Positions 1 to 6,963 of a stretch of 12,517 nt of DNA are shown piece after piece. A program made the translations under genes and the position numbers. Positions within the stretch are counted from its first letter, which is position 1, and every line of letters starts with the position of its first letter. This DNA is from a virus. Location of the stretch: UHGV virus genome UHGV-1669581, one strand, 5' to 3'. Below the pieces are notes generated by a model. The model searched no databases and was not told the origin of the DNA. It was given only the letters and a program-made list of their open reading frames with translations.

Positions 1-123
1 GCCATCAAACCACGTCAAATAATCAATTATGACGCAGGTATCGTATTAATTGATCTGCATCAACTTAACGTAAAAACAACTTCAGACAATACAAATCAGC
101 GACACTGAATACAGGGCAACCTC

Positions 124-357
124 ATGTCAACGAAGAACAGAACCCGCAGAACAACAACCCGCAACATCCGCTTTCCTAACCAAATGATTGAACAAATTAA
201 CATCGCTCTTGTTCAAAAAGGGTCCGGGAATTTCTCAGCCTGGGTCATTGAAGCCTGCCGCCGGAGACTGTGCTCAGAAAAAAGAGTTTCGCCTGAAGCA
301 AACAAAGAAAAGAGTGACATTACTGAATTGCTCAGAAAACAGGTTAGACCAGATTGA
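124..357 (+). CDS. Small ribbon-helix-helix (Arc/MetJ/CopG-like) DNA-binding protein, 77 aa
   Basis: N-terminal basic tail (MSTKNRTRRTTTR) followed by a beta-strand/helix/helix pattern, NIRFPNQ / MIEQINIALVQKG / NFSAWVIEACRRRL, which parallels the Arc repressor layout (PQFNLRWPRE / VLDLVRKVAEENG / ...). Lies immediately upstream of the AT-rich ORF at 415..825 on the same strand. Weak RBS. Confidence 0.5.
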   Translation: MSTKNRTRRTTTRNIRFPNQMIEQINIALVQKGSGNFSAWVIEACRRRLCSEKRVSPEANKEKSDITELLRKQVRPD

Positions 358-414
358 AGCAATCTAGATAATCGTGCAGACTACGCCCCCTCATATCACA
401 TGGAAGGTACTACA

Positions 415-825
415 ATGGCTCAGGTTGCCATTTTTAAACAAATATTCGATAAAGTGCGAAATAATTTAAACTATCACTGGTTTTATTCTGAACTAAAACG
501 TCACAATGTCTCACATTACATTTACTATTTAGCCACAGAGAATATTCATCTTGTTCTTGAAAACGATAATACGGTTTTAATAAAAGGACAGGGTAAGGTT
601 GTAAATGTAAGATTTTCAAAAAATAAATGCCTTATAGAAGCCACCTTAAAAGGATTCAAATCAGGAGAGTTATCATTTTACGAATACAGGAAAAATCTTG
701 CTACAGCAGGGGTTTTCAGATGGATTACAAATATCCACGAAAACAAAAGGTATTACTATACCTTTGATAATTCATTACTCTTTACTGAGAACATTCAGAA
801 CACTACACAAATATTTCCGCACTAA
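415..825 (+). CDS. Hypothetical protein, AT-rich moron; possibly a YbcV/DUF1398-like post-lysis accessory protein
   Basis: Open frame 400..825; the ATG at 415 has a GGAAGG RBS about 9 nt upstream, so 415 is the preferred start. Visibly AT-rich with atypical codon usage. Tyr/Asn-rich sequence with no recognisable catalytic motif. The position past the lysis cassette on the opposite strand matches where DLP12 carries borD/ybcV/ybcW/ylcI. Confidence 0.5.
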
Positions 826-1111
826 ATCATAACGTCCGGTTTCTTCCGTGCCAGAACCGGACTCGCTGGCATGATGAAATATGTGTACCCGGTACCCCCG
901 GTGTGCATCGTTTTTGATTATTCCCGCACACTCGCGCAGAAGGAGTTCCCCGTCGGGCTACGGTCTCTGTTAATACGGGAACACGGCGACGATACAGCGC
1001 ATGATGTGTCAGGCTTGAATACCTTTATCCTTTAAAAGGGATATCAGTTAAGTTATCCCGTGTAGGGTATAAGCCATTATCAAGCCCACCCGTAGATAGG
1101 CTTTGTAATGG

Positions 1112-1369
1112 CTACTTCGCTTTTGCTTCCGCTCGCTTACGCCGGCGCTCTTCTTTCCTCTCGGCTTTTGCCATGTCCATGAATGCCTGCATGATCGAGT
1201 TCCGCATCATGTAGCTAACAAAGTGATGATTGACACAGCCGTTGAGGCGCAGCTGCTCGCCAAACTCATCCACCGAGGCCAATGCTTCCATCATGCCCTT
1301 CTCGCCTTTCATGAACTCTGAGAAGTCGCGCCCCGCTCTGGAGGCGCATTCAATAACACGATCACTCAT
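1112..1369 (-). CDS. Hypothetical small protein with a strongly basic C-terminal tail (KAERKEERRRKRAEAKAK)
   Basis: 85-aa ORF whose ATG overlaps the stop of the upstream KilA-N gene (ATGA at 1366..1369), implying translational coupling. No recognisable domain. Confidence 0.5.
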   Translation of the reverse strand: MSDRVIECASRAGRDFSEFMKGEKGMMEALASVDEFGEQLRLNGCVNHHFVSYMMRNSIMQAFMDMAKAERKEERRRKRAEAKAK

Positions 1370-1863
1370 CCCGGAAGCCCGGGGATCGTAATCTGCAGCT
1401 GGTTAGCCAGGGAGTTAATCTCAGCGACCAACACTGGCTTCGTATAGCGCCATGCTGCCAGCCCTTGTCCGCAGAAGCTCGCCATGTCTTTCTTCTGGTC
1501 AAACTCATGACATTTCATGTTGAGCTGCGCACTTAAGCTGTTGCGATGCTGAAGTTCTCCGGTGAAGTAGTCATCGAGGACTTTATAGGCCGCGTACTTG
1601 AACCCGGGGTTTAACCAAGCCGCATAATCGTAAGCAACAAACTTCCCGCCATATGTTCCACCGTGTACACCGCGCTCAGTAAAAACCACAGATTCGTGGT
1701 TTTTCTCCAGCTCGGCTAAGAACTCTTTGGTCTGCTTGTTTCGCAGGTAGTGGTAAGGCGATTCAGATTCACTTTTACCACTGGCTTTCCACATATCAGT
1801 GAGGCAGATCATGCCATCTTCACCGATACGAATTGGTTGATTGAAGAGGGTTAATGATTTCAT
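1366..1863 (-). CDS. KilA-N domain protein
   Basis: The N-terminal region (ICLTDMWKASG...YLRNKQTKEFLAEL...GGTYGGKFVAYDYAAWLNPGF) follows the KilA-N pattern (xLxDxxKAxG...WLRNxQTxELIxEL...GTYVxxELxxxYAxWxSP) also seen in the ORF at 5757..6554. Confidence 0.6.
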   Translation of the reverse strand: MKSLTLFNQPIRIGEDGMICLTDMWKASGKSESESPYHYLRNKQTKEFLAELEKNHESVVFTERGVHGGTYGGKFVAYDYAAWLNPGFKYAAYKVLDDYFTGELQHRNSLSAQLNMKCHEFDQKKDMASFCGQGLAAWRYTKPVLVAEINSLANQLQITIPGLPG

Positions 1864-1974
1864 AGCGTGTACCTACTCTTTGAAATGAACCTTTGCCGCA
1901 CAGGAAACCAGCCCACCGAGGCTCGCCAGCACTAACTGGTATCCTCAAAGGCCCATTCCAAAGGGGCAGGTTCG

Positions 1975-2032
1975 GTGTAAAAAACATGCGTTGCGGTACG
2001 CATTTATTGCAAAAAGCCCCGCATCGCGAGGC
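1975..2032 (-). terminator. Two tandem rho-independent terminator-like hairpins immediately downstream of Rz
   Basis: On the minus strand: ATGCGT-accgca-ACGCAT followed by GTTTTTTACA (plus coords about 1975..2003), and GCCTCGC-gat-GCGGGGC (one G-U pair) followed by TTTTTGCAATAAA (plus coords about 2008..2032). Confidence 0.5.
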
Positions 2033-2064
2033 TCATTAAATGGACTTTGTGATTTGCAAAAAAA

Positions 2065-2526
2065 TTAATTCAGGCATTGCGTCCTGATGTATTCCTGCAG
2101 GTAGTTAACCTGCGCGGTTATCTTGTCGATTCCACTTCGGAGACGGTAATAATTGAGTTCAGCATCTGCTGTAAGTCCTGGGCTTTCTCCATCGCCCATG
2201 CCGCTGGCTCCGGTCGTTGACTTTGCACAGGTGGCAGCGACTTGCAGGCGCTTACGCCCAGCAGAAACATCAGCACGGAGACTTTCGATAGTCGCGTTAG
2301 CATCAGCAAGCTCCTTTGTGTATCTGGCGTCAAGTTCTGCTACGTCACGTTGACGCTTCTGCATATCAGAGATGGTCGCCATAGCCGAATCTAATGCCAT
2401 AGCATTCTCATCACGCTGCTTTTTGTATTCAATAGCTTTATTGTGGTAATGATTCACTGAACAGATAAAAGAACCAACGACAGAAACGAAGAAAACAGCG
2501 ATAACCAGCTTATAGCTCAACTTCAT
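2065..2526 (-). CDS. Rz: Rz i-spanin (inner-membrane spanin subunit)
   Basis: 153 aa with an N-terminal TM segment (LVIAVFFVSVVGSFICSVNHY). Clear similarity to lambda Rz (VNHY..NAI.YK.QRD.NA...MQ.RQRDVA.LDA.YTKELADA...LR.DV.AGR.RL). Follows the endolysin gene with a 17-nt overlap. Confidence 0.88.
   Translation of the reverse strand: MKLSYKLVIAVFFVSVVGSFICSVNHYHNKAIEYKKQRDENAMALDSAMATISDMQKRQRDVAELDARYTKELADANATIESLRADVSAGRKRLQVAATCAKSTTGASGMGDGESPGLTADAELNYYRLRSGIDKITAQVNYLQEYIRTQCLN
2118..2303 (-). CDS. Rz1: Rz1 o-spanin, outer-membrane lipoprotein embedded out of frame within Rz
   Basis: ORF in a different frame, wholly inside Rz. ATG at 2303 with an AAGGAG RBS about 8 nt upstream. Lipoprotein signal peptide MLTRLSKVSVLMFLLGVSA|C with lipobox VSAC, then a Pro-rich mature region (CKSLPPVQSQRPEPAAW) like lambda Rz1. 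The ORF track's longer start at 2333 is a TTG codon. Confidence 0.78.
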   Translation of the reverse strand: MLTRLSKVSVLMFLLGVSACKSLPPVQSQRPEPAAWAMEKAQDLQQMLNSIITVSEVESTR

Positions 2527-2986
2527 TTACCACCCCACCAGCCTCTTTAAACCGGGCAATCAGGTCACCGATTTTATGTTCATACTGACCGTAACCAGCG
2601 CCCGGCAGTGAAGCCCAGATATTGCTGCAACGATCGATAGCCTGACGAATATCGCCGCGATCAATCATCGGTAAAGCGCCACGCTCTTTAATCTGCTGCA
2701 ATGCCACAGCATCCTGGCTTTTTGGAGAGAAGTCTTTCAACCCAAGCTGCTTGCGGTAAGCATCCCACCAGCGTGAAAGAAGTTGATAACGGCCTGCAGC
2801 TGTTGATTTGAGTTTCGGGTTTAGCGTGACAAGTTTGCGAGGGTGATCGGAGTAATCAGTGAAGAGTTCTCCACCGACAATAACGTCATAACCGTGGTTA
2901 CGTGTCAGTTGTCGCCCGTTATCCGTTCCCTCTGACCATGCCACCATATCCAGGAAAGCTTTACGCTGGGAATTTAGTACCTGCAT
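2510..2986 (-). CDS. R: Endolysin, lambda R-type lytic transglycosylase
   Basis: 158 aa, near-collinear with lambda R as recalled (NSQRKAFLDM.AWSEGTDNGRQ.TRNHGYDVIVGGELFTDYSDHPRKLVTLNPKLKST.AGRYQLLSRWWDAYRKQLGLKDFSPKSQDAVALQQIKERGALPMIDRGDIRQAIDRCSNIWASLPGAGYGQ). Confidence 0.95.
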   Translation of the reverse strand: MQVLNSQRKAFLDMVAWSEGTDNGRQLTRNHGYDVIVGGELFTDYSDHPRKLVTLNPKLKSTAAGRYQLLSRWWDAYRKQLGLKDFSPKSQDAVALQQIKERGALPMIDRGDIRQAIDRCSNIWASLPGAGYGQYEHKIGDLIARFKEAGGVVNEVEL

Positions 2987-2989
2987 AAA

Positions 2990-3316
2990 TTACTCCTTAG
3001 AGCCACCAAACTTGTTACCGATTACTCTCATTGCAGCCCCACGAATAGCATCAACACCGATCAGCCCCACCCCACCACCAATGGCAACAGATAGTGATTT
3101 AGGCCATCCGACATACTCAAGAGCGGATGCAAAAGTCAGCGTCAGAGCGCCACAGAGTAGAATTTCGAGTGTTTTTCGCTTCCAGCCGCCACCACCGCCA
3201 AAATAGGCAATACGTAAACCAGCCATAACAATCGACATAATCACTGCGCCCAGCGGTGTGTCTCCACGCCACCAGCTCTGGACCAACTCCAGCCATGTAT
3301 TTGGGTTATGAGGCAT
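2990..3316 (-). CDS. S: Class I holin, lambda S-like
   Basis: 108 aa with three hydrophobic segments and a charged C-terminus. The pattern parallels lambda S (GAILAFAMAYLRGRYNGG...IIAWF... versus GAVIMSIVMAGLRIAYFGGGGG...). Sits directly upstream of R with a 3-nt gap. GAGGTGAGAG RBS. Confidence 0.82.
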   Translation of the reverse strand: MPHNPNTWLELVQSWWRGDTPLGAVIMSIVMAGLRIAYFGGGGGWKRKTLEILLCGALTLTFASALEYVGWPKSLSVAIGGGVGLIGVDAIRGAAMRVIGNKFGGSKE

Positions 3317-3582: not shown

Positions 3583-4329
3583 ATGCGACATAATTTTTCT
3601 AAAGACACTATAAAAAAATTAGCAGAGCGGGCAGCATTCATTTGTTCAAACCCTTCATGCCCTAGATTGACCATTGGCCCATCAATTGATGGCAATAAAT
3701 CAATCAAGACAGGAGTTGCTGCTCACATATGTGCAGCATCTCCTGATGGCCCACGCTATGACATGTCACAATCAGAAACAGAAAGGAAGTCAATTAACAA
3801 TGGCATATGGCTGTGTGCTACTTGTTCTGTATTAATAGATAAGAATCAGGGGCTAGACTATCCGGCACCTGTATTAAGAAAATGGAAAAAAGATCATGAA
3901 AGCCTTATAAGCTCCTGTCTTGAAGGTTCGATTAATATTACCTTCGATGCTTTGAAATATATTCAACAGCATGATGAAAGAAATCTGGCAAAAAAGATTA
4001 TAAATGAATTGGATGATAAAGGGGCTTTGTTCGTAGAATATCATCTTGAAAACCCCTGTTTTGTTGCCGAATCACTCAAAGAGTTAAGAACATGTTTGAC
4101 CTCTTTGCTTTCTCAAATCCCAGATGAATCACCTCTATTTATCGTTTGCAAGTCAATTCGAGAAGCATGCCGTTATTATATGAACAACACTTCTAAAGAC
4201 GCAGGGATTAAAGAGTTAGAATTTTCGTTGGGAGCTGTCAGAAAAATCGTAGGTATCAACGTTAAAAGAATATCAGAAACCTACGGGGTTAAACCTAGCC
4301 CACAATTATCTACCATAATGCCAGATTAA
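3583..4329 (+). CDS. HNH-like nuclease-domain protein with an uncharacterised C-terminal domain; AT-rich moron between Q and the holin (candidate accessory or defence gene)
   Basis: 248-aa ORF on the strand opposite the late genes, visibly AT-rich. The N-terminal ~110 aa carry a zinc-finger HNH-like signature: C21-x4-C26 (CSNPSC), AAH48ICAAS..GPR, N72/N73-G-I-W-L-C78-x2-C81. The C-terminal ~135 aa have no motif I recognise. Followed by its own hairpin terminator. Confidence 0.6.
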   Translation: MRHNFSKDTIKKLAERAAFICSNPSCPRLTIGPSIDGNKSIKTGVAAHICAASPDGPRYDMSQSETERKSINNGIWLCATCSVLIDKNQGLDYPAPVLRKWKKDHESLISSCLEGSINITFDALKYIQQHDERNLAKKIINELDDKGALFVEYHLENPCFVAESLKELRTCLTSLLSQIPDESPLFIVCKSIREACRYYMNNTSKDAGIKELEFSLGAVRKIVGINVKRISETYGVKPSPQLSTIMPD

Positions 4330-4338
4330 ATCTGTTAC

Positions 4339-4381
4339 GCAGCAACAAAGTTAAACTCTATGTTGCTGCCTTAATTTTATT
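4339..4381 (+). terminator. Rho-independent terminator of the moron gene
   Basis: GCAGCAACA-(13-nt loop)-TGTTGCTGC (9-bp stem at 4339..4347 / 4361..4369) followed by CTTAATTTTATT. Begins 10 nt after the moron stop and overlaps the 3' end of the Q gene on the other strand. Confidence 0.65.
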
Positions 4382-4745
4382 ACTCCATTTCTAAACGAAT
4401 ATCCAGCATCGAGAGACAACCATCTATAAACCCTTCAGCCAACTGTATCTCTATACGTATCAATTTCTCATCTTTTTTGTATGCTTTTGCTATCTTCCTT
4501 TTCGAGATGCCATACAGGTAATGAGCCACAATCAGAGAGTGCTCATACGGTTTTCTCTTCTTAAGAAGAGCAAGACAACCTTCAATAATTAATGCATCAC
4601 TATCTGAACAAGCCTGACGTGTTTTGCTTGTGTAGGGAAGAAGCCCCTTAAACCCAGCAGCTATAGGCGAATAGTCTACTCCAGAACTATCACTCGCCGC
4701 CCATGCTCCCCAACGCTCCAGAACCATCTGAATATCACGCATCAA
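4380..4745 (-). CDS. Late-gene antitermination protein Q-like (small, QuuD/DLP12-type)
   Basis: 121 aa, last gene of the early-right operon and immediately upstream of the lysis region. The N-terminus (MRDIQMVLERWGAWAA...AAGFKGL) matches my recollection of small Q-family antiterminators. Cys/His-containing. Confidence 0.6.
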   Translation of the reverse strand: MMRDIQMVLERWGAWAASDSSGVDYSPIAAGFKGLLPYTSKTRQACSDSDALIIEGCLALLKKRKPYEHSLIVAHYLYGISKRKIAKAYKKDEKLIRIEIQLAEGFIDGCLSMLDIRLEME

Positions 4746-4759
4746 CTTTCTCCACCAAA

Positions 4760-5755
4760 TCAGGCCAACACACCAATCGCCAGCGCGCGATCGATAAAAC
4801 GAAATATCAGCTCCAGTTGGGAGCCATACTTCTCTTCAAATGCCACGGTATCCGCATGCAGCTCGTCGTGATGCTTTCTGCACAAAGGCAACACAAAGAG
4901 GTCATGCGCTTTTGTACCCATTCCACCCTGACCGTGACCTATCAGGTGGTGGGGATCATCAGCAGGCTTTCCACAACATGCACACGGCTGTGTCTTAACC
5001 CAGCGCGTGTACTTTTCATTAACCCAGCGGCGGCGTTTTGGGCGTAACATAAAAGACTCCGGCGACTCCGGATCCACTTTCAGCGCCAGCACCTTTTTCG
5101 CCTTATCCTGGATGATGCTGGTGGCAGGAACCGAAGGCACAAGGTCACTTTCCCGGGTGACAGACGGCACAACAGGCTTCGGTAATCTCAGTGCCTTACG
5201 GGCTGCACTTTCCGGTAAGGCATCTGCCAGATCATTACGAATCAGCCACCAGCACAGTTCCGGCATTGTCACAACGTGACTATCATCAAAACCGAGATCC
5301 CGACGCACAACAGACAACACCCAGCGGGCACAGTTATCCGTTGCCATTGATTCCAGCCGTTCCGTGAACTGATCGCGAAGCTGGTTATCGCAGTGCCAGC
5401 ACAGACGGATTGCGCCCGGCGCGTGTCGCATTGTGGTCATATTCTCGCTGTGCCAGTCGGAATGAGGCCACTGGCAGCCTTTTTCACGAAGTAACCAGCT
5501 TTCAAGACATTCCACCCCACCAGCACGACGAATCACTGCCTCATTACGGAACACGGCCAGAACGGCAGGATCATCCGCCAGCGGTTGTGATGCCGCAGGA
5601 ACGGCACCACTGGCGAAAGATGAATAACGCTCCGGCTCAGGCTCCAGCAGAACACGCCCCTGCATAAACAGGGGCATCAGCTCTGAACCTGGCCTGAACA
5701 ATACGATCCCCATACGCGGGGCTATTTCAGGGGTCAGTAGTGCTCTCACGGTCAC
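4760..5755 (-). CDS. DUF968-like phage protein with a C-terminal HNH-like zinc-binding motif
   Basis: 331 aa. The C-terminus (PCACCGKPADDPHHLIGHGQGGMGTKAHDLFVLPLCRKHHDELH) is a Cys/His cluster typical of the DUF968/HNH-like proteins found upstream of Q in lambdoid prophages. 1-nt gap to the upstream KilA-N gene. Confidence 0.55.
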   Translation of the reverse strand: MTVRALLTPEIAPRMGIVLFRPGSELMPLFMQGRVLLEPEPERYSSFASGAVPAASQPLADDPAVLAVFRNEAVIRRAGGVECLESWLLREKGCQWPHSDWHSENMTTMRHAPGAIRLCWHCDNQLRDQFTERLESMATDNCARWVLSVVRRDLGFDDSHVVTMPELCWWLIRNDLADALPESAARKALRLPKPVVPSVTRESDLVPSVPATSIIQDKAKKVLALKVDPESPESFMLRPKRRRWVNEKYTRWVKTQPCACCGKPADDPHHLIGHGQGGMGTKAHDLFVLPLCRKHHDELHADTVAFEEKYGSQLELIFRFIDRALAIGVLA

Positions 5756-5756
5756 C

Positions 5757-6554
5757 TCAATGAACGGTATCGAGCAGCTTTAACAGCTCAGGGAATCGGG
5801 ATTCGAAGAAATGCGGCTGCGTCTCGCGCGGATTTGCGGGACTGGTGATGTTCTTGCCGAACATGCAGCCTTTCGCCGTCAGCGACCAGAATTTTTTAAT
5901 GTTGTTAATTGCGGTACGGCTGTATCGTTCGCGTTGTTCAACGATCCCCAGCTTCACCATCTGGTGATATGCCTGATTAGCCGTAAGGCGGATACCATAC
6001 TGTTTCAGCAGTGCACTCAGCGACAGCGTGGGGCGACTTGAGCCATCAGGCGCGTCAGCAGGAGCATCAATGGCATAGCGCGGTGCCAGATTCGGTAAGC
6101 CAACAGCCTCCTGAAGCTTCTGACAGGCTCCAAGCACTGATGAGTTAGACAGGTTTAATTCCCTGCGCATAAAGTCCAGCAGGATCACGCCAGCCTGCAT
6201 CTTGTCAGCAGCCTGCCCGGATATTTTTTCCGGTGTGCTGGTTACCATATCGAAAGTACGGATCACCTTCAGATGGAATGACGGGCTGATCCACATTGCA
6301 TAGGCATACACCAGTTCTTTGCAGACATACGTCCCCTGGTTATTTCCGCCACGAATAACGTTAACTGGCTCTATATTGACCGAGTTGCAAATCTGCAACT
6401 CGCTTATTAAACGTTCAGTTTGCTCATTGCGGAGCCAGAATGCAGGCTTATGCTTATCCAGAGAACCGGCAGCCCTGTGCAGATCGTTCAGGCTGTAACG
6501 CCCATAAGCATCACGACGAACTTCAATACCATCAATGACCATCAGATTATTCAT
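5757..6554 (-). CDS. KilA-N domain protein
   Basis: N-terminal region GRYSLNDLHRAAG...KPAFWLRNEQTERLISEL...GTYVCKELVYAYAMWISPSFHL fits KilA-N. The ATG at 6554 has a GAGGAG RBS 9 nt upstream and is preferred; the longer frame opens at 6587. Confidence 0.7.
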   Translation of the reverse strand: MNNLMVIDGIEVRRDAYGRYSLNDLHRAAGSLDKHKPAFWLRNEQTERLISELQICNSVNIEPVNVIRGGNNQGTYVCKELVYAYAMWISPSFHLKVIRTFDMVTSTPEKISGQAADKMQAGVILLDFMRRELNLSNSSVLGACQKLQEAVGLPNLAPRYAIDAPADAPDGSSRPTLSLSALLKQYGIRLTANQAYHQMVKLGIVEQRERYSRTAINNIKKFWSLTAKGCMFGKNITSPANPRETQPHFFESRFPELLKLLDTVH

Positions 6555-6573
6555 ACTTCGTTTCTCCTCTTGA

Positions 6574-6963
6574 TCAGGCGGCTGCACCCGCCGGTTTCTC
6601 GTACTTACTGATAGTGATCTCGACCTTCCCTTCCGGGATAACCGGTCCCCACTCCACCAACATTCTTTTCACTTGGCTGTCGTCTTCCCACACACCCGCG
6701 TAGGTCAGGGCGTCAAACAGCGCCTTGTTATAGTTGTCCAGATCGCGGATCCGGTTATCCGGAGGAAACAACACGATCTCCACTGAAGCAGGTGCCGACG
6801 TTGGTTTCGGCAGACGACGTAACTGCTCAACTATTGCTGCGCACGCTGCGCTCTGGAATTTTCGCCCCGCCGCGCTTATCAGGCTCTTACCAGCAAACGC
6901 CCCTTTGTTGGGGTGTCGCCAGTACGTGTTCACGCTGGGCGGAAAAGGCAGGATCAGCTTCAT
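6574..6963 (-). CDS. rusA: RusA-family Holliday junction resolvase
   Basis: LPFPPSVNTYWRH and PDNRIRDLDNYNKALFDALTYAGVWEDDSQV match the RusA signature ([44 protein letters not shown]). ATGA start/stop overlap with the upstream gene. Confidence 0.9.
   Translation of the reverse strand: MKLILPFPPSVNTYWRHPNKGAFAGKSLISAAGRKFQSAACAAIVEQLRRLPKPTSAPASVEIVLFPPDNRIRDLDNYNKALFDALTYAGVWEDDSQVKRMLVEWGPVIPEGKVEITISKYEKPAGAAA

Follow-up and report, generated by a model that had tools for sequence, protein, structure and literature searches.

A 12,517-nucleotide stretch of viral DNA, UHGV virus genome UHGV-1669581 (the window, meaning this whole stretch), forms the right end of a lambdoid Escherichia coli prophage, with position 1 corresponding approximately to lambda position 48426, some 76 bp from cos. 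Between the lysis cassette and cos it carries two small open reading frames (ORFs): ORF1, a member of the DUF3950 family equivalent to ynfO of the K-12 Qin prophage, and ORF2, a member of the DUF1398 family orthologous to ydfO of Qin. These are probably two independent accessory genes, constituting neither a toxin–antitoxin (TA) module nor a dedicated regulator–effector pair, and each family is found without the other. The genes, their families and the structure of YdfO are already known, and near-identical copies exist in thousands of E. coli genomes; positions 1–1100 of the window match annotated prophages of several E. coli genomes, as well as phage PhiR49_1, at 99.9% identity.

Identity of the two genes and their closest relatives

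The two genes and the lysis genes to which they are opposed are arranged as follows.

124–357, plus strand: ORF1, ATG start, 77 residues
415–825, plus strand: ORF2, 136 residues, or 141 residues with the alternative start at 400 (in-frame ATG at both)
2065–2526, minus strand: Rz
2510–2986, minus strand: endolysin
2990–3316, minus strand: holin

As Rz, endolysin and holin all lie on the minus strand, ORF1 and ORF2 oppose the late genes. The ORF1 stop is separated by 42 nt from ATG-400 and by 57 nt from ATG-415. The latter is the likelier start: a GGAAGG Shine–Dalgarno sequence at 401–406 stands ahead of it, the 136-residue form is the one annotated by RefSeq in 99.9%-identical genomes, and the alignment to the solved structure of YdfO begins at its Met. 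With ORF2 starting at 415, the spacer is therefore 57 nt. ORF2 has a GC content of 31.4% (30.7% at third codon positions), as against 44.4% in ORF1, 49.8% in the lysis region (1112–3316) and 48.1% in the entire window. The N-terminal tail of ORF1, MSTKNRTRRTTTRNIR, has basic residues (Arg/Lys) at 6 of its 16 positions and acidic residues at none. A first-pass annotation, made from the letters of the window, had described this layout correctly, including the ORF coordinates with a gap of 42–57 bp, a highly basic tail on the first protein, a strongly AT-rich second ORF, and an orientation opposite to the late genes. It had also placed the genes in the borD/ybcV/ybcW/ylcI position of the DLP12 prophage, which holds, Qin ynfO-ydfO being the more exact match, and had suggested searches for DUF3950 and DUF1398, both of which were found.

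ORF1 matches Pfam DUF3950 (PF13132) with an E-value of 2e-20 and 72.8 bits (cut-off 25), and NCBIfam NF041551 (YlcI_YnfO_N) with 35.2 bits (cut-off 30); it is also assigned to phrog_949, and is annotated by RefSeq in 99.9%-identical genomes. It is thus a DUF3950/YlcI-YnfO protein, the orthologue of ynfO in K-12 Qin. The conserved core of the family (I-R-F-P, then N-F-S-x-W, then C) is present in ORF1, and R16, F17, P18, N36, F37, S38, W40 and C45 are invariant in 28 of 28 lambdoid and satellite members. A comparison of codons 1–50 of this gene with those of phage Lys8385Vzw gives 5, 2 and 24 differences at first, second and third codon positions, respectively, comprising 19 synonymous and 6 non-synonymous codon changes. 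The DUF1398 codons, compared with those of Qin, have 28 synonymous and 34 non-synonymous changes; the third-position excess persists, with DUF1398 evolving faster than DUF3950. Purifying selection on coding sequence is shown, and both ORFs are genuine coding genes.

ORF1 is conserved over its N-terminal 50 residues, which are followed by a variable C-terminal tail. The DUF3950 gene contains a mosaic breakpoint. Ahead of it, some 50 codons show strong conservation among relatives and, in lambda-type loci, continue the conserved DNA that reaches cos; beyond it, the C-terminal tail varies with the downstream region, giving 64, 66, 75 or 77 residues and unrelated sequences.

ORF2 matches Pfam DUF1398 (PF07166) with an E-value of 3.3e-43 and 147 bits (cut-off 22) over profile positions 1–119 of 119, and is a DUF1398 protein of the YdfO/YbcV/YcgX family. 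It is 75% identical to E. coli YdfO, the structure of which has been solved by nuclear magnetic resonance (NMR; PDB 2HH8), and has the two alpha2-beta3 repeats of the YdfO fold. A fold search for DUF1398 function returned 2HH8 as the sole match, and the fold is an orphan. Database labels for the family include “putative envelope protein” (lambdap78) and “head protein” (phrog_413, apparently followed by RefSeq phage records). No support was found for either label as applied to DUF1398, and both look like annotation carry-over, as the protein lacks a signal peptide and the NMR structure of its homologue is that of a soluble protein. YdfO was presumably made alone for that structure, and its overexpression has been reported to increase resistance to oxidative stress (cited in PMC4077768). 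The ydfO gene has been listed as “essential only by TraDIS” (transposon-directed insertion-site sequencing; PMC5821084) though deletable, a point that PMC5821084 does not discuss; the listing may stem from poor access of transposons, or poor mapping of reads, to an AT-rich, paralogous gene. The lambda homologue, lambdap78, is non-essential (PMC10695390).

The closest known system is the ynfO (b4533)-ydfO (b1549) locus of K-12 Qin, which shares with the window both families, their order, strand and 57-nt spacer, and the location of the pair between nohA/cos and the lysis region. The DUF3950 proteins are about 96–97% identical, whereas the DUF1398 alleles are only ~81% identical as DNA, and beyond ORF2 the window has an 85-residue ORF and a KilA-N/ORF11CD3 gene where Qin has gnsB/ynfN/cspI. 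The right end of lambda is homologous to the window from cos to approximately position 1001 (86.8% identity), and lambda and DLP12 encode the same DUF3950 N-terminal domain and the same DUF1398 family. Their gene order differs, being ylcI - ybcW (lambdap79) - ybcV (lambdap78) - bor, with ybcW/lambdap79 on the opposite strand and separating DUF3950 from DUF1398 by more than 500 nt; YlcI itself has 64 residues and a C-terminal tail unlike that of ORF1, and the window lacks both ybcW and bor. Lambda escapers of the Vulcan defence recombine with Qin, gain the ybcW-less layout and are viable (bioRxiv 10.64898/2026.09.04.749371). ORF1 and ORF2 also resemble the lambda morons bor and lom, which are likewise extra genes between functional modules, dispensable for lytic growth; bor occupies the same slot and similarly opposes the late operon. 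Unlike ynfO and ydfO, however, bor and lom encode products of defined nature, namely outer-membrane proteins, and their expression in lysogens is proven (reviewed in PMC7067206).

Distribution of DUF3950 and DUF1398

Translated searches (tblastn) over phage records located DUF3950 in 155 and DUF1398 in 43, and the Shiga toxin (Stx)-converting phages among the matches all carry DUF3950 only. BP-4795 and Lys8385Vzw each have a solitary DUF3950 gene, flanked by an HNH/terminase module on one side and the lysis genes on the other. E. coli has 9865 DUF3950 places in 4187 genomes, with up to 12 per genome, and O157 strains have 8–9 such places versus a single DUF1398 place. By estimate, roughly one third of the DUF3950 copies in E. 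coli are followed by DUF1398. A second DUF3950 subfamily, 35–43% identical, occurs in Klebsiella, Salmonella, Serratia, Yersinia, Dickeya and others, and is located in integrase-AlpA-primase satellites resembling phage-inducible chromosomal islands (PICI) or P4. In the Klebsiella and Dickeya satellites, DUF3950 is the sole plus-strand gene inside the int-alpA-primase operon, and is followed by a terminator of its own. The retention of DUF3950 as a lone gene in many phages and in satellites makes it likely that YnfO has a function of its own.

DUF1398 occurs in relatives of lambda type and Qin type but is missing from those of BP-4795 type. Such patchy presence between conserved modules, together with a GC content of 31% against 48% for the window, is what is expected of a moron. 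At one locus DUF1398 has been lost to an IS5 insertion. The family is small: clustering at 50% identity gives it 189 clusters, many of which are fragments, out of 1.84 billion representatives. Outside phages, ycgX (DUF1398) adjoins bluR in nearly all E. coli, without DUF3950, and at eight loci with 25–44%-identical DUF1398 homologues, all in chromosomal contexts, DUF3950 was found in none of the six frames.

A 233-residue “fusion” with W at a TGA codon exists in a protein database (P0014, 761 members), and in the window ORF1 and ORF2 do lie in one frame with a single TGA between them. Readthrough of this TGA, fusing the two proteins, was considered and rejected, as the frame relation varies among related loci: 72 have the same frame and a single stop, 61 have a spacer 1 nt shorter and are out of frame, 19 have extra stops, and eight have a spacer 1 nt longer. 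The database entry is most likely a gene-calling artefact.

Species-representative genomes of unrelated phyla (Streptomyces, Cohnella, Pedobacter, an Arcanobacterium “plasmid” and others) also contain the lambda ylcI region, mainly on contigs of ~3.5 kb or ~48 kb that are 95% identical to lambda. These contigs are most likely leftover sequencing control DNA in the assemblies, and the species-genome scan therefore gives no taxonomic breadth for DUF3950, its matches being mostly such contamination.

Predicted transcription signals, possible DNA binding and competing explanations

Four sequence features lie in and around the two genes.

22–54, plus strand: imperfect inverted repeat ATCAATTATGACG / CGTATTAATTGAT in the ORF1 leader, 13-nt arms with 11/13 complementary and a 7-nt gap; candidate operator
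338–354, plus strand: PdhR-type box AACAGGTTAGACCAGAT in the last ORF1 codons, 60 nt before the ORF2 ATG; single match in the window
345–372, plus strand: sigma-70 promoter-like site (TAGACC, 16-nt spacer, GATAAT; 9/12), placed to drive ORF2
834–862, plus strand: 8-bp hairpin GTCCGGTT...AACCGGAC just past the ORF2 stop; no T-run, not a canonical intrinsic terminator

The PdhR-type box overlaps the promoter-like site, and its homologue in K-12 Qin is AACAGGTCAGACCAGAT (positions 971–987 of the Qin locus, L005). The Qin box has been reported with a PdhR peak, “ynfO > ydfO < gnsB”, in genomic systematic evolution of ligands by exponential enrichment (gSELEX; PMC7660256), and ybcV mRNA is 10-fold lower in a pdhR mutant (PMC7660256). 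Expression of K-12 ydfO also responds 116-fold to ionic liquid, as measured by quantitative PCR (qPCR), and to induction of DicC. Together, the promoter-like site, the overlapping box and these responses of ydfO and ybcV in K-12 favour an independent ydfO promoter, and ORF2 probably has one of its own. Both genes are presumably expressed during lysogeny.

Upstream of ORF1, an 11/13 repeat of the kind at 22–54 was reached in 20 of 2000 mononucleotide shuffles of positions 1–123; as the region is nearly invariant among lambda-type loci, it carries no covariation information. Ahead of satellite DUF3950 genes, an element-specific motif of 12–13 bp is present in triplicate, as GGTGTACCCCCAC in Klebsiella and GTGTTTAAACAC in Dickeya (loci L220–L226, near 4880–5000), an arrangement resembling an operator array. 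The 8-mer CACGTCAA (window 11–18), a single copy in 12.5 kb, lies upstream of DUF3950 and is found in both satellite types as well, which may be chance.

Just to the left of the window, between cosN and the DUF3950 gene and 149–163 nt before the ORF1 ATG, is a perfect 7-1-7 Fur-box consensus, TGATAATnATTATCA (5961–5975 of the extended locus L001, in which window position 1 is 6001; also at 594–608 of L005). It occurs exactly once in 175 of 219 loci and is absent from HNH-terminase-type phages. The Fur site has been assigned to nohA/nohB, with a positive gel shift (PMC2189734). As an operator for ynfO the box was rejected, since the best overlapping promoter (GTGACA, 16-nt spacer, TATCAT; 10/12) faces cos/nohA and not ynfO. 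A remnant of the bor promoter at 960–990 was likewise discarded, the −10 in the window being degenerate.

Resemblance to the Arc/Mnt-type repressors of phage P22, which belong to the ribbon-helix-helix (RHH) class, suggests that YnfO may bind DNA. Like them, DUF3950 is small and has a basic N-terminal arm, and its two predicted helices are connected by a turn that contains Gly; unlike them, it has the invariant NFSxW motif, which is DUF3950-specific. A single-sequence AlphaFold2 (AF2) model of ORF1 has an extended stretch followed by helices at 19–31 and 37–50, and hhalign aligned DUF3950 TTRNIRFPNQMIEQI on Arc PQFNLRWPREVLDLV, placing N14-I-R16-F-P18 over N11-L-R13-W-P15. In the Arc–operator structure, the base-contacting residues of Arc are in that strand.

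The preferred reading is that two separately evolving moron-type genes occupy one slot, bounded by the lysis cassette and cos, and are transcribed in opposition to the late operon. YnfO would be the regular resident of the slot, a small conserved protein that most likely binds DNA, and YdfO, soluble and with an orphan fold of two alpha2-beta3 repeats, would be an optional, AT-rich, horizontally acquired insert downstream. Probably ydfO is expressed from its own promoter, within the end of ORF1 and the spacer, which may be under host control given the PdhR-type box and the K-12 reports of induction by stress; transcription from ORF1 could also read through into ydfO to some extent.

Several observations weigh against this reading. 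Wherever the upstream DNA of a phage-borne DUF1398 gene is readable, the gene is preceded by a co-oriented DUF3950 gene; the only three exceptions are contig-truncated. A functional or expression link between the two may thus exist, though the dependence is one-way, of phage DUF1398 on an upstream DUF3950 and not the reverse. The site at 345–372 is a prediction only, promoter-like sites in the region being no more frequent than in shuffles, and nothing convincing was found as a promoter for ORF1. Plus-strand positions 1–1400 contain no terminator-like site, hence none between the ORFs, so some co-transcription is likely. As regards DNA binding, hhalign probabilities for DUF3950 were 2.9–4.9% for Arc and 0.3% for Mnt, and ORF1 had no RHH match against the PDB or Pfam, whether as a single sequence or as profiles built from two DUF3950 alignments (A3 and A5). 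The RHH assignment made by the first-pass annotation is therefore a plausible working assumption, with an Arc-like N-x-R-x-P strand and two predicted helices in its favour, and DNA binding by YnfO is suggested by motif resemblance, none of the statistical tests for RHH having given a positive result.

The consistent order of the phage-borne genes, the 57-nt gap without a terminator, the inverted repeat in the ORF1 leader and the triple motif before satellite DUF3950 would all suit an alternative in which YnfO is an autoregulating RHH repressor and its promoter also drives ydfO, as one operon in Qin-type prophages, so that YnfO would set the level of YdfO or of another gene in the slot. Such a unit seems doubtful, however: DUF3950 is usually solitary and then has its own terminator, the opposite-strand ybcW intervenes in lambda and DLP12, and DUF1398 has a promoter-like site and PdhR box of its own. 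The spacer variants also argue against it, as 1-nt indels and added stops indicate that the spacer is not tightly constrained. The first-pass annotation had suggested a possible regulator–effector or antitoxin–toxin pair, and had named a lack of co-conservation as grounds for abandoning it. Such a lack is what was observed, each gene being found without the other, and the pair is unsupported. As a type II TA module, YnfO would be an RHH antitoxin that neutralises and represses a YdfO toxin, and the layout, with a small RHH-like gene upstream of another small gene on a mobile element, is generic for such modules. The proposal is nevertheless extremely improbable. Neither protein matches a toxin, antitoxin or defence family in Pfam, NCBIfam or PADLOC, including the TA families that the first-pass annotation had proposed for checking; Rfam finds nothing in the entire window; and ORF2 has no known toxin family or fold. 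Orphan DUF1398 genes are numerous, a strong argument against a toxin dependent on this antitoxin, and the protective effect reported for YdfO overexpression, the presumed production of YdfO alone for its structure and the dispensability of lambdap78 point the same way.

A different kind of explanation places the function of DUF3950 at the junction in which it sits, with DUF1398 as an unrelated passenger. DUF3950 would act in lysogeny as a brake or insulator against readthrough of a long operon, by protein binding, convergent transcription or both, the downstream module being packaging in lambdoid phages and replication in satellites. Indeed, whether the element is a lambda-type phage, an HNH-terminase-type phage or a satellite, a lone DUF3950 gene runs counter to a long unidirectional operon where two modules meet; residues 1–50 of the protein show very strong conservation amid variable flanks, and a genome may hold up to 12 copies. 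The case is purely positional, however, lambda genetics has had no need of a factor of this kind, and plaques form without the region (PMC10695390, in which the DUF3950 ORF itself was not among the targets), making this brake decidedly unlikely. The boundaries concerned are lysis–packaging in lambdoid phages with two terminase systems and alpA–primase in PICI/P4-like satellites. In its more specific form, DUF3950 would be a conserved Arc-like DNA-binding factor, encoded as a lone antisense gene at such boundaries, that could brake the operon in lysogeny while DUF1398 is a passenger; this is an unlikely proposition. With up to 12 near-identical N-terminal domains in one E. coli genome, DUF3950 could also be a factor of cross-talk among co-resident prophages and satellites.

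Neighbouring elements and wider implications

The accessory-gene slot and the region beyond it contain further features.

905–1001, minus strand: conserved element of ~95 nt that folds as one long hairpin, at the edge of the accessory-gene slot; its end coincides with a mosaic breakpoint (1001)
1112–1369, minus strand: 85-residue ORF, phrog_875, between Rz and DUF1398, where lambda has bor
1366–1863, minus strand: KilA-N + ORF11CD3 (Ant/Bro-like) gene, overlapping the 85-residue ORF in the same interval
3583–4329, plus strand: 248-residue ORF, opposing the late genes, between the Q-like antiterminator and holin
4380–4745, minus strand: Q-like antiterminator
5757–6587: second KilA-N gene

The 905–1001 element is common to lambda, DLP12 and BP-4795, the last of which lacks DUF1398, whatever genes flank it. 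On the minus strand, the sense of the late transcript, its variable positions pair as G-U, whereas the plus strand would give C-A mismatches. With two compensatory pairs and stability z-scores of −0.96 (window), −2.7 (lambda) and −1.6 (BP-4795), the evidence for an RNA hairpin is weak. PhiR49_1 annotates a 54-residue ORF at 905–1001, which in lambda is broken by 1-nt indels.

The 248-residue ORF occupies a slot that in relatives holds an ompC/OmpD-like porin. It has no Pfam match, and its N-terminal 130 residues match the PADLOC profiles PDC-M68A (7.5e-27), “Effector Endonuclease” of CBASS (4.8e-21), SAVED-HNH (4e-19) and Shedu SduA (4.7e-08), making it a candidate prophage-encoded anti-phage nuclease.

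For the two genes by the lysis cassette, the toxin–antitoxin reading of ynfO-ydfO can be dropped, and DUF3950, rather than DUF1398, is the conserved element that merits experiment. Of the uncharacterised genes that lambdoid prophages and enterobacterial satellites carry, it is one of the most widespread, always in the same unusual antisense position. Both ynfO and ydfO still figure in the list of uncharacterised K-12 genes (PMC11551758), so that any phenotype, however simple, would fill a small gap in the y-ome.

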